A stretch of DNA of 60,357 bases from Patescibacteria group bacterium. GTDB lineage: Bacteria; Patescibacteriota; Minisyncoccia; Phycocordibacterales; JAKFXT01. Positions 7,460 through 22,685 of the stretch are shown here, in pieces. The DNA is taken from positions 1 through 60,357 of the forward strand of contig JBBTUX010000008.1 in the NCBI GenBank assembly GCA_038063555.1, written 5' to 3'. Under the pieces are notes generated by a model that did no database searches, was not told the origin of the DNA, and saw only the letters and a program-made list of their open reading frames with translations. How positions within the stretch are numbered: position 1 is the first letter of the stretch; every line of letters starts with the position of its first letter. The position numbers were made by a program, and so were the translations under genes.

Positions 7460-7601
7460 TTTTTAATTATACACAGGAGATTCCTTTCTTTTTAGGACAA
7501 AAAAGGATACTATTAAAAGTGGCTCGCTCTTTTCAGGCTTGGACAGCTGTCTTGAGCTAGCTCCAACCGCGTCAACTGACGCGCAACCCAAGGAGAAAGA
7601 C

Positions 7602-7703
7602 ATGAGAAACCGCCACACCGTCAGTACCGCGCCTCCGGCCGCCGCCGCCGCCGCGAACACCGTCCAGGCCAAGTTGAACGCCGACCGGCGCAAGGCAACC
7701 TGA
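7602..7703 (+). CDS. candidate 33-aa peptide (MRNRHTVSTAPPAAAAAANTVQAKLNADRRKAT), or part of an sRNA
   Basis: GC-rich island. GGAG lies 6 nt upstream of the ATG and a terminator hairpin lies 27 nt downstream. Confidence 0.25.
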   Translation: MRNRHTVSTAPPAAAAAANTVQAKLNADRRKAT

Positions 7704-7729
7704 AGAACCAAGTCCAGCCCAAGGAGGCA

Positions 7730-7770
7730 AGCCCCAGGCGCACAACGCGCTCGGGGCTTTAAATTTTCGC
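7730..7770 (+). terminator. intrinsic terminator
   Basis: AGCCCCAGGCGC-loop-GCGCTCGGGGCT followed by TTAAATTTTCGCTTTT. Confidence 0.6.
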
Positions 7771-20879: not shown

Positions 20880-21392
20880 TTAATTCATAAAGAATATTCT
20901 AGCAATACTGAAAACAAAAACGAAAGTGTTTGCTTTAAACAAAAAATTAAGCGATACAACCTTTCTCAAAAACTCTTCAAAACCATAGAAAATTTGGTAT
21001 TTTCTGTCTTTTAACATTTTTACAATAACATAAAGAAGACAGAATAAAACATACGGCACAACGATAAAATACAGCGCGCTCGTAACCGATATTATTATTG
21101 TCAATAATGGGTCGATTTCATCGGGAATACCAATAAAATAAGAGTATATATGTATTATTTGAGAAAAAACCACTACAAAAATCACAAACATCGAAAATTT
21201 CTTTAAAAAAGATAAACTTGGATTTGTCTCATACCCTTTATTCTTCCTGATTTTTTTTATTAAAAAAATAATTGTCAGAATAACAAAGACCGCGATCGAC
21301 ATTACTGGCGCAAACAGTGCCAAAATTGACTCAATAGGCGGGTGTCCTCCGCAACCAAACAAACAGAAAACCAAATTGTCTATTTCCTCCAT
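20880..21392 (-). CDS. polytopic membrane protein, hypothetical
   Basis: Start set at MEEIDNLVF (ATG at 21392). Has 4-5 hydrophobic segments. Confidence 0.55.
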   Translation of the reverse strand: MEEIDNLVFCLFGCGGHPPIESILALFAPVMSIAVFVILTIIFLIKKIRKNKGYETNPSLSFLKKFSMFVIFVVVFSQIIHIYSYFIGIPDEIDPLLTIIISVTSALYFIVVPYVLFCLLYVIVKMLKDRKYQIFYGFEEFLRKVVSLNFLFKANTFVFVFSIARIFFMN

Positions 21393-21455
21393 ATTTTTTA
21401 ATTGTAACACTAACCTCTGCCCTCGCAATTCCCATACCCACACTTCTTATATAGA

Positions 21456-21479
21456 CCTAATTCGCGCGAATGGTAGAAT
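21456..21479. promoter_or_regulatory. 24-bp inverted-repeat arm (left) containing the palindrome TTCGCGCGAA and a TAGAAT box
   Basis: 23/24 reverse-complement match to 21820-21843. Confidence 0.8.
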
Positions 21480-21490
21480 GATGAAAAAAA

Positions 21491-21760
21491 TTACACCAAT
21501 ATGCTCAAAATGCGTCTCGACAATTCCGGGGCGCTATCAGAAAAACGATAAAATATTTGTATACTTCTTTGTTCTTTATCAAGAAGGTCAACTGAATCTA
21601 GAATTTTTAAATGTTTTGACGTAGCTCTAAAAGACAGTTTTATTTCTTCAGCAATGTCACCAACCGATGCTTCTTTTTTCTTTTTTAAAAAACGCAAAAT
21701 ATTTAAGCGCCTTTTATTAGCAATTGCTTTTAATAATCTTTCTAAATCTTTTTCTTTCAT
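21491..21760 (-). CDS. ArsR/SmtB-family HTH transcriptional regulator
   Basis: ..LKAIANKRRLNILRFL....SVGDIAEEIKLSFRATSKHLKIL. Confidence 0.8.
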   Translation of the reverse strand: MKEKDLERLLKAIANKRRLNILRFLKKKKEASVGDIAEEIKLSFRATSKHLKILDSVDLLDKEQRSIQIFYRFSDSAPELSRRILSILV

Positions 21761-21819
21761 AAAATTATTTAAATGAAAATGTTCTATGAAAATAATAGCA
21801 ACTTATAGCATTCCACAAT

Positions 21820-21843
21820 ATTCTACCCTTCGCGCGAATTAGG
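21820..21843. promoter_or_regulatory. 24-bp inverted-repeat arm (right), candidate operator/promoter of the ArsR-family gene
   Basis: Reverse complement of 21456-21479 with one mismatch, 60-83 nt upstream of the regulator start. Confidence 0.8.
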
Positions 21844-21879
21844 TATAGGATGATACTGTAAATTATAATATGAAATAGT

Positions 21880-22320
21880 TGTGTCGCAAAGGAAATGTGA
21901 TATATTCTAAATTAGGTTGTACACGGAAAGGAGGTGATACTGTCCCGTAACATATGACTGTTACTGACATAGCTGGGCCTACTCCCCTGACCCAGCGAGT
22001 TGCGGTAGCGGTAGTATCAAGGGCGGTGCAATGCCGTCCTATTTCTGGGACTGCCGTTGGGCGGGTTTTTCCCTCGCTGGGTTACCGCCCGACGGCAGGT
22101 AGTTTCGCTCTTTAAGATTTTTGGAAGGCCATAAGCAAATCCTTTCTCCTCGCAAGGGGTCCCGGGTTTTGCCGGCAAAGGGAGTCTGATGTCCCCTTAA
22201 TGCTGTGCGCCGTCGGAAAGCGCATGGCAAACACAAAACCAATGACGCGGCCTTGGGGTCGAGTCGCTTGGAAGCAAAGTCGCCCGCGTTCTCTATAGGA
22301 GACCGGGCGATTTCATTTTT
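21880..22320 (+). ncRNA. candidate ~440-nt GC-rich structured RNA of unknown class (5' end not defined)
   Basis: No convincing ORF on either strand. Long-range pairings include CCCAGCGAG/CTCGCTGGG and the 14-bp CTGCCGTTGGGCGG/CCGCCCGACGGCAG. Ends in an intrinsic terminator. Confidence 0.45.
22280..22320 (+). terminator. intrinsic terminator
   Basis: TCGCCCG..TCTC-tatag-GAGA..CGGGCGA followed by TTTCATTTTT. Confidence 0.7.
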
Positions 22321-22376
22321 ATAAAAAGAAAACCCCCGCCATAGACGTGGATTTCAATTTTAACAATGAATCCGAA

Positions 22377-22685
22377 CTAAATCATCTTCACCTTCTTCCA
22401 AATTGAAGTCGATCTCAAATTATTGAGTAGGTCGGCAGAGACTGTAAAACACTTCTTTCTGTTGTTAATCTCCCGACAAAAGGCCTTTCCACGCAAAGAA
22501 GCAATTTCGGTTTTATCACCGAAATAAACCCTGACCACAACCATTCTATTTCTAAGGATTGCGGTTAAAATCTTTCCAGGCGCTGCTTCCCACGCATCAA
22601 AAAGACCTGTTCTGATTCTCGCAACAACTTGAAACTTCCCCTCAAAATCTCTTGCTTTCTCAAAAAACTCCCGAACCGTAGCCAT
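22377..22685 (-). CDS. hypothetical protein (102 aa)
   Basis: Start set at MATVREFF (ATG at 22685) with GGAG 5 nt upstream. Intermediate GC. Confidence 0.55.
   Translation of the reverse strand: MATVREFFEKARDFEGKFQVVARIRTGLFDAWEAAPGKILTAILRNRMVVVRVYFGDKTEIASLRGKAFCREINNRKKCFTVSADLLNNLRSTSIWKKVKMI

Follow-up and report, generated by a model that had tools for sequence, protein, structure and literature searches.

The stretch of DNA considered here, referred to as the window, is a contig of 60,357 nucleotides (nt) (JBBTUX010000008.1; C8 in our numbering) from a Patescibacteria genome of 672 kb, 38% GC and 20 contigs, which is called G000 below. Behind gyrB it carries a gene for a small regulator of the ArsR family that is bracketed by two palindromic sites, and beside this gene a GC-rich stretch with the appearance of a structured RNA. 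To judge from sequence comparison, these are probably two adjacent and separable units: a palindrome-arsR-palindrome cassette and a stand-alone gene for a structured RNA. The cassette appears to be a system of an ordinary kind, an autoregulated ArsR-type repressor with its operators, and its layout seems to be widespread in Patescibacteria. The GC-rich stretch is a candidate for a new family, namely an independent non-coding RNA gene under strong selection.

The regulator and its probable binding sites

The palindromic sites follow the regulator from genome to genome. Counts of the core ATTCG-N2-3-CGAAT were compared with a search for the ArsR subfamily at E <= 1e-15 in a set of 401 genomes of the order, in which relatives are designated by G numbers and G004 is the sister species. 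The subfamily is present in 29 of the 37 genomes with at least seven sites and in 13 of the 364 genomes with fewer (odds ratio 98, p = 6e-27), and a reversed control pattern gives counts of mostly 0-4 per genome. The same association is found within the family: G000, G002, G004 and G005 have 8-14 sites and the protein, and G001, G003, G006, G008 and G010 have 0-1 sites and no protein. Furthermore, arsR lies between two sites in G004, G002, G005, G014, G106, G169, G242, G156, G194, G198 and G380, as well as on a contig from JGI; in G194 the two flanking sites are direct, not inverted, repeats. Winged-helix ArsR proteins bind double-stranded inverted-repeat DNA. Together with the co-occurrence of site and protein, this makes the operator reading the most economical one, and the palindromes are most likely operators of the ArsR regulator, as an earlier reading of the sequence alone (the sequence-only reading) had proposed. 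A literature search found no description of a palindrome-arsR-palindrome cassette.

The two sites in the window were delimited with a repeat finder. The left one (21452-21479) lies 12 nt past the arsR stop codon and has its core, TTCGCGCGAA, at 21461-21470; the right one (21820-21847) has the same core at 21829-21838. The sequence-only reading had described 24-bp inverted repeats around the regulator gene, each arm with this perfect palindrome and an inward-pointing TAGAAT, and had stated how far they lie from the arsR start (21760) and from the ATG at 21392. All of these elements are present and the distances are correct; only the arms turn out to be a little longer, with 28 nt that are 93% complementary. 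Each arm is itself a palindrome that is also found singly elsewhere in the genome. Within the 672 kb, the 24-mer has six copies with at most three mismatches, the further ones at C14:8949, C18:4051, C2:3743 and C7:15817, and the core has nine; in the form ATTCG-N2-3-CGAAT it is found 10 times, against a single occurrence of the reversed control pattern. Among the core copies are two perfect palindromes of 32-36 bp downstream of arsR paralogues on C6 and C2. Alignment of the half-sites gives ATTCT-N3-ATTCG, and hence a full site with four ATTC boxes. The outer arms are different between paralogues and match within one locus. The arsR gene of G004 is bracketed by two palindromes with other outer arms (CCCTCATTCGTGCGAATGAGGG), and a site at the 3' end of murI is kept between species.

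The regulator gene (21491-21760, minus strand) encodes a winged-helix protein of the ArsR/SmtB type with 89 amino acids (aa). Its earlier assignment to the ArsR family is confirmed by two profiles that exceed their cut-offs, Pfam HTH_5 (35.8 bits, cut-off 22) and NCBIfam NF033788 (66 bits, cut-off 55). The closest solved structures are those of HlyU, NolR and CzrA. The protein sequence contains no cysteine, one histidine and none of the metal-site motifs of the ArsR family. A metalloregulator in the strict sense was therefore rejected, the metal or metalloid site (the CXC motif of alpha3 or the His/Asp/Glu cluster of alpha5) being missing, and the protein is closest to a minimal, sensor-less form of the HlyU/NolR type. 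The orthologue in G004 has 64% aa identity, with synteny kept. Genomes have several arsR paralogues with sites, which are 40-63% identical to each other; the two further ones of G000 lie at C6:3534-3815 and C2:7372-7638.

A consensus scan gives a candidate arsR promoter, TTGCGA-16-TATAAT (21862-21889, minus strand, 10/12 match), with a counterpart at the same place in G004 (TTGTGA-16-TACAAT). Counted from the inferred start of arsR transcription, the right palindrome would then extend from about +8 to +35. On the minus strand, the gene behind arsR encodes a 170-aa membrane protein without a family match (20880-21392) and lies downstream of the left palindrome. Its promoter, TTGCGA-16-(TG)TACAAT, is placed by the consensus scan at 21401-21428 on the minus strand, with the left palindrome about 25 nt upstream of the -35 box and the ATG at 21392 only 8 nt past the -10 box, so that the gene is near-leaderless. 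This arrangement is kept in G004 and on the JGI contig. In G198, G014 and the JGI contig (L102), the -10-like arm of the site stands 5-10 nt before an ATG, and at some loci the palindrome therefore overlaps the core promoter.

A likely mode of action can be sketched from these positions. One dimer of the ArsR-type protein, or two, would bind to palindromes of about 28-32 bp with the general form ATTCT-N3-ATTCG|CGAAT-N3-AGAAT. Binding to the site just downstream of the arsR transcription start would lead to autorepression, and the second site is situated past the arsR stop codon, ahead of the next gene's promoter. The other copies in the genome may define a small regulon, with the site in the murI 3' end preceding a gene for a secreted protein, and paralogue-specific variants by genes for superoxide dismutase and peroxiredoxin.

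Some further copies of the palindrome may be mentioned here. Perfect palindromes of the paralogue type (CTATTCTCT[AT]ATTCG..) are found in G000 at C6:3485-3516, 103 nt upstream of a gene for an Fe/Mn superoxide dismutase, and at C9:18112-18153, just downstream of a peroxiredoxin gene; a superoxide dismutase gene is near arsR in G156 as well. A further site of the paralogue type is found at C2:7654-7690. One ArsR paralogue may be linked to oxidative-stress genes. Copies in frame are present in ychF, murI, miaA and a gene for a 1541-aa protein (G000 C7:15817-15840, C13:17912 and C2:3743; G004 L060:1357; G014 L056:1807), and the one in miaA is common to two different families of the order. A second GC-rich region that follows a motif copy (C14:9008-9235) was considered as a related RNA and rejected, as it has a 51-aa basic open reading frame (ORF) on the opposite strand.

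The candidate GC-rich RNA behind gyrB

On the minus strand, gyrB (24851-22740) is followed by an ORF of 102-116 aa (22727-22377), arsR (21760-21491), the membrane-protein gene (21392-20880), a 198-aa gene and a gene for an 801-aa protein with an LTD domain. The space that separates the 102-aa ORF next to gyrB from arsR contains, on the plus strand, the GC-rich region. This region is a real island, with 54-55% GC at 21900-22300 against about 30-38% around it, and is predicted to specify a structured non-coding RNA of about 410 nt (21913-22320). Here the sequence-only reading was right about a structured RNA and overestimated its length at about 440 nt, since a conserved promoter places the start near 21913. 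This candidate promoter (21879-21906, plus strand) consists of TTGTGT (21879-21884), a 16-nt spacer and the extended -10 element TG-A-TATATT (21898-21906); it is kept in G004, with TTGTAT for TTGTGT and the same spacer length and -10 element, and in a third species, G002. At the 3' end stands the plus-strand intrinsic terminator (22277-22321) that had been noticed before, a GC-rich hairpin (22277-22313) followed by UUUCAUUUUU. Its pairing is kept in G004, where UGGCCCG/CGGGCCA replaces UCGCCCG/CGGGCGA, the stem being preserved through a swap of C-G to G-C. Transcription of the RNA would start from an extended -10 promoter of its own, run divergently to that of arsR and stop at this terminator.

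The conservation of the RNA exceeds what would be expected at the neutral rate. BLAST searches of 60 relatives give a sole homologue, in G004, which is likewise located between the gyrB-proximal ORF and arsR and contains a 66-nt duplication of the leader. Between G000 and G004, identity at third codon positions is 56.6% for gyrB and 52.8% for arsR. The 3' domain of the RNA, however, has 85% pairwise identity (90% mean column identity in a MAFFT alignment), which makes it as conserved as the first codon positions of gyrB (91%), and the 5' part has 69%. Several hairpins show compensatory changes between the two species.

In line with the sequence-only reading, the region does not seem to encode a protein: no ORF is shared with G004 and there is no protein similarity. 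A 53-aa ORF of G000 corresponds to one of 11 codons in G004, a 96-aa ORF of G004 is broken in G000, and within the best-conserved 160 nt the two species differ by indels of 1, 4, 3, 1 and 1 nt. Neither is the stretch explained by a known RNA family. Covariance models of Rfam 15 give nothing at the gathering threshold in the window, and nothing credible at E <= 10 for 21700-22450 or for the G004 homologue, where the best matches by E-value (16-23 bits) are to unrelated eukaryotic snoRNA and miRNA models. ARAGORN finds no tRNA or tmRNA at the GC-rich region. An RNase P RNA or tmRNA in disguise was rejected, these RNAs being located at C3:5140-5603 and C6:45012-45400. The sequence AUCACCUCCUUUC had raised the idea that the minus strand carries a piece of 16S rRNA. 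This was likewise rejected, as the stretch does not resemble the 16S rRNA of relatives, in which that tail is missing altogether.

When folding is compared with that of shuffled sequences, the plus strand has z = -4.1 and the minus strand z = -2.1. The predicted structure begins with a purine-rich 5' leader, GGAAAGGAGGUGAU (21925-21938, plus strand), which is conserved in all three species. It is followed, on the same strand, by a hairpin GCUGGG/CCCAGC (helix 5, 21972-21996) with two compensatory pairs relative to the homologue (CCUAGG/CCUAGG) and by a hairpin AGGGCGGUG/UGCCGUCCU (helix 6, 22020-22040) with one compensatory pair and three one-sided changes. Next comes a long hairpin (helix 7, 22051-22098), in which the repeat finder recovers the 14-bp stem 22051-22064/22085-22098 of the sequence-only reading. 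The long-range complementarity also reported there is present as a 10-bp match between 21990-21999 and a part of the loop of helix 7 (22073-22082); it would be a pseudoknot with the hairpin loop or an alternative pairing, and a partly equivalent one in G004 (GGAAGA/UUUUCC) can be drawn by eye only. Five short hairpins make up the 3' domain (22127-22276, plus strand), together with a single-stranded linker (22226-22245) that is A/C-rich.

RNAalifold predicts 14 local helices from the two-sequence alignment of G000 and G004. Eight of the 80 consensus pairs have changed on both sides and still pair, against 0-3 when the partners are slid by one to three columns. This consensus structure was built from the same two sequences, and single-sequence folds were for that reason cross-checked against the other species. 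In one direction, 28 of the 62 changed pairs are kept against 33% for the null (p = 0.04), as are 10 of the 16 doubly changed pairs against 30%; in the opposite direction, the count is 28 of 49 against 39% (p = 0.008). By these comparisons the local hairpins appear to be supported, and the long-range helices do not.

The leader deserves separate comment, as GGAAAGGAGGUGAU is the complement of the canonical 16S tail. A ribosome-binding role of its GGAGG was rejected. No Shine-Dalgarno peak is found upstream of 386 long ORFs of G000, and the 16S rRNA of G004 and G008 lacks CCUCC. No 16S gene is present in the G000 assembly; the 3' ends in these two relatives, G004 (L068) and G008 (L067), are GGAUUAAUUC and GGAAUUAUUC instead of GGAUCACCUCCUU, tails without the CCUCC anti-Shine-Dalgarno. 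Several promoters have a -10 box 5-9 nt ahead of the ATG and thus look leaderless. In structure prediction, the invariant UCUCCU (22147-22152) and the 5' half of the terminator appear as alternative partners with which the leader may pair.

Provided that this is an RNA gene, its product would most likely act in trans, either as a regulatory RNA that acts through base pairing or as a protein-binding RNA. Part of the linker (22228-22242) is complementary in 14 of 15 positions to 21360-21374, that is, to +19 to +33 (codons 7-11) of the membrane-protein mRNA. It is the only match with at most one mismatch in the genome. As a base-pairing seed for this mRNA the linker was set aside and the match treated as probably due to chance, because permuted seeds average 0.85 such matches and G004 has neither the gene at the locus nor an equivalent match.

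The distribution of the RNA is narrow. A covariance model of the 3' domain detects only G000 and G004 among the 401 genomes of the order. An exact conserved pattern of 19 bases is found only in G004 among one genome per prokaryotic species, and metagenome contigs give only chance matches. The RNA is also absent from the viral contigs, phages and plasmids searched, from the contigs that carry the closest ArsR and GyrB proteins, and from all 20 other arsR loci examined. G002 has the promoter and the first 45 nt or so of the leader, followed directly by a terminator, which leaves a stub of about 75 nt, and an IS200-like tnpA is inserted between this stub and arsR. In the JGI relative, arsR begins 112 bp after gyrB and the RNA is absent. 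As the RNA is missing beside arsR in the other relatives checked, it is regarded as a clade-specific addition and not as a component of the cassette. Its gain or retention would be confined to a small clade within a single Patescibacteria genus, where it would be kept under strong purifying selection. In G001 and G003 arsR is absent from this slot, which is occupied by an unrelated two-gene cassette, and the slot behind gyrB is a variable region in the genus. The idea that the RNA is a decayed homologue of the small GC-rich gene found there was rejected for want of any similarity.

A few observations on the same region can be added. The tnpA of G002 (L032, G002:C56, 4040-4600) is of the IS200/IS605 type and is flanked by its own hairpins (CCCTGTGGCAGAGACCACAGGG). 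In G003 (L088, 660-1220) and G001 (L089), the slot has a GC-rich ORF of 57-58 aa and then an ORF of about 80 aa, a convergent pair of small genes that could be toxin-antitoxin-like. The species also turns up in Logan assemblies of the runs SRR32696678-87. In two Logan contigs from its strain variants (L077 and L078), 40 of the 42 differences in 2 kb are at 20889-21057, which is the strain-variable 3' end of the membrane-protein gene; neither arsR nor the palindromes nor the RNA differ, except for a 1-nt deletion in the terminator loop, and the remaining difference is at 22348, just beyond the terminator. A second GC-rich island of the window (7540-7770), in which GC reaches 70%, separates rnhB from dnaE; it contains a possible Ala/Pro-rich ORF of 33 aa (7603-7704) and a terminator-like hairpin at about 7729-7760, and has no match in Rfam.

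Alternative explanations of the locus

Several observations do not sit easily with a repressor cassette beside an independent RNA gene, and they are best weighed together with the alternatives that they favour. The back-to-back position of the RNA and arsR recalls pairs of the OxyR/OxyS type. The right palindrome might accordingly be a shared operator of two divergent promoters, with the RNA as the output of the switch. The -35 regions of the two promoters overlap, the palindrome is within 35-90 bp of both starts, and the divergent layout is kept in G004 and, with an insertion sequence (IS) between, in G002. Nevertheless, the palindrome is outside the core promoter of the RNA, which lies about 55 bp beyond it. 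Relative to the inferred start of the RNA, the palindrome has its centre at about -80 in G000 and about -74 in G004, and therefore the helical phase is not conserved. Moreover, the cassette is present in dozens of genomes without the RNA, among them the close relative with arsR directly behind gyrB. Joint control thus seems unlikely. The sequence-only reading had offered it in the form of a regulator with two operators controlling a novel RNA: the two operators are supported, and so is the structured, terminated non-coding RNA without an Rfam match, but the control of the latter by the former has become less likely.

Other difficulties concern single copies of the palindrome. Those at C14:8949, C18:4051 and C9:18129 are located between convergent genes, where an operator role is hard to see. 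The last of these follows the peroxiredoxin gene and looks like a terminator, being a perfect 15-bp stem with UUUUGUUUU behind it. The copies at C7:15817 and C13:17912 are within ychF and the gene for the 1541-aa protein, respectively. Because convergent-gene, terminator-like and intragenic copies misfit a pure operator model, a rival is kept according to which the palindromes are mainly nucleic-acid hairpins (mRNA stem-loops, terminators or REP-like elements) that are recognised or managed by the ArsR-like protein. Only the apical ATTCG..CGAAT is constant across sites and the outer arms vary yet remain self-complementary, which would suit a hairpin too, and the two sites frame the inferred arsR transcript almost exactly. 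As a main role this appears quite improbable, given that the winged-helix proteins of this family are binders of double-stranded DNA, that many copies elsewhere carry a -10 box that makes the downstream ATG leaderless (G198, G014 and L102), and that a U-tract is missing at most copies. A RAYT/IS200-type transposase is furthermore absent from G000, where the IS200-like TnpA of G002, used as a tblastn query, has no match (best E = 0.7). A mobile unit resembling a miniature inverted-repeat transposable element (MITE), with the palindromes as terminal inverted repeats that carry the regulator gene, had also been suggested. The 93% complementarity of the arms over 28 bp and the several arsR paralogues with sites per genome would be in line with such a unit, but there is no target-site duplication at the flanks and no transposase, the flanking sites of G194 are direct repeats, and each arm is palindromic in itself and is found singly as well. 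With 40-63% identity the paralogues include no recent copies, and there is no near-identical unit in the genome. Orthologous position and synteny are kept across species, and with 64% aa identity the gene has diverged like any ordinary orthologue. A mobile element is thus scarcely credible, and the suggestion has been abandoned.

As for the RNA gene, covariation rests on two full-length sequences and is suggestive but statistically not solid, the strain variants being nearly identical and uninformative in this respect, and most stems of the best-conserved domain never vary. The GC-rich stretch might then be decaying foreign or once-coding DNA that folds merely because it is GC-rich. It has a GC content well above the genome mean and is present in two species only, and the slot behind gyrB holds different small cassettes in other congeners. 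That it should be mere decay is nonetheless very unlikely in view of the 85-90% identity of the 3' domain, against about 55% at neutral sites, and of the conserved promoter and terminator, the latter with a compensatory change. Indel lengths that are not multiples of three and the lack of protein similarity also tell against it, and the phage, plasmid and viral searches gave no match.

Known systems and meaning for Patescibacteria

With HlyU of Vibrio, NolR of Sinorhizobium, SdpR and BigR, which belong to the same family, the regulator shares a small winged helix, a palindrome at its own promoter and the lack of metal residues. It differs from them in its length of only 89 aa, in a site of about 28-32 bp with four ATTC boxes, to which binding is predicted, in a second copy of the site that always follows the stop codon, and in having, within one genome, several site variants that are specific to paralogues; neither an inducer nor sensing residues can be recognised. 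In REP/REPIN-RAYT systems, intergenic palindromes are likewise dispersed, with a copy number that tracks one dedicated gene, itself flanked by repeats. Here, however, the partner is a winged-helix DNA binder and not a Y1 transposase, and there are about 10 copies, many of them at promoters.

The RNA can be compared with two groups. In OxyR-OxyS, GcvA-GcvB and SgrR-SgrS, an RNA gene with its own terminator also stands back-to-back with a regulator gene, with a site in between. In contrast to these, the RNA described here has about 410 nt, is highly structured and is not an Hfq-type small RNA, its pairing with the regulator is confined to two or three species, and the regulatory link is putative. 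The OLE, GOLLD, ROOL and raiA-type RNAs are, like this one, encoded in GC-rich intergenic islands with many conserved hairpins, no ORF and a terminator of their own; they occur in many genera, whereas this RNA matches none of their Rfam models and is present in two species only. It seems rather unlikely that it founds a new class of large regulatory RNAs with extensive structure and has been captured as the output of a sensor-less ArsR cassette. If true, this would be the first circuit of a transcription factor and a non-coding RNA described in Patescibacteria, which have very few regulators and, in this lineage, do without Shine-Dalgarno initiation.

The restriction of the RNA to two species limits its wider importance for now. 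Still, a genome of 672 kb maintains a non-coding RNA of 400 nt that appears to be under strong selection. Patescibacteria are uncultured and have tiny genomes with very few recognisable regulators, and the regulator with its 28-bp site may therefore offer a practical way into their gene control.

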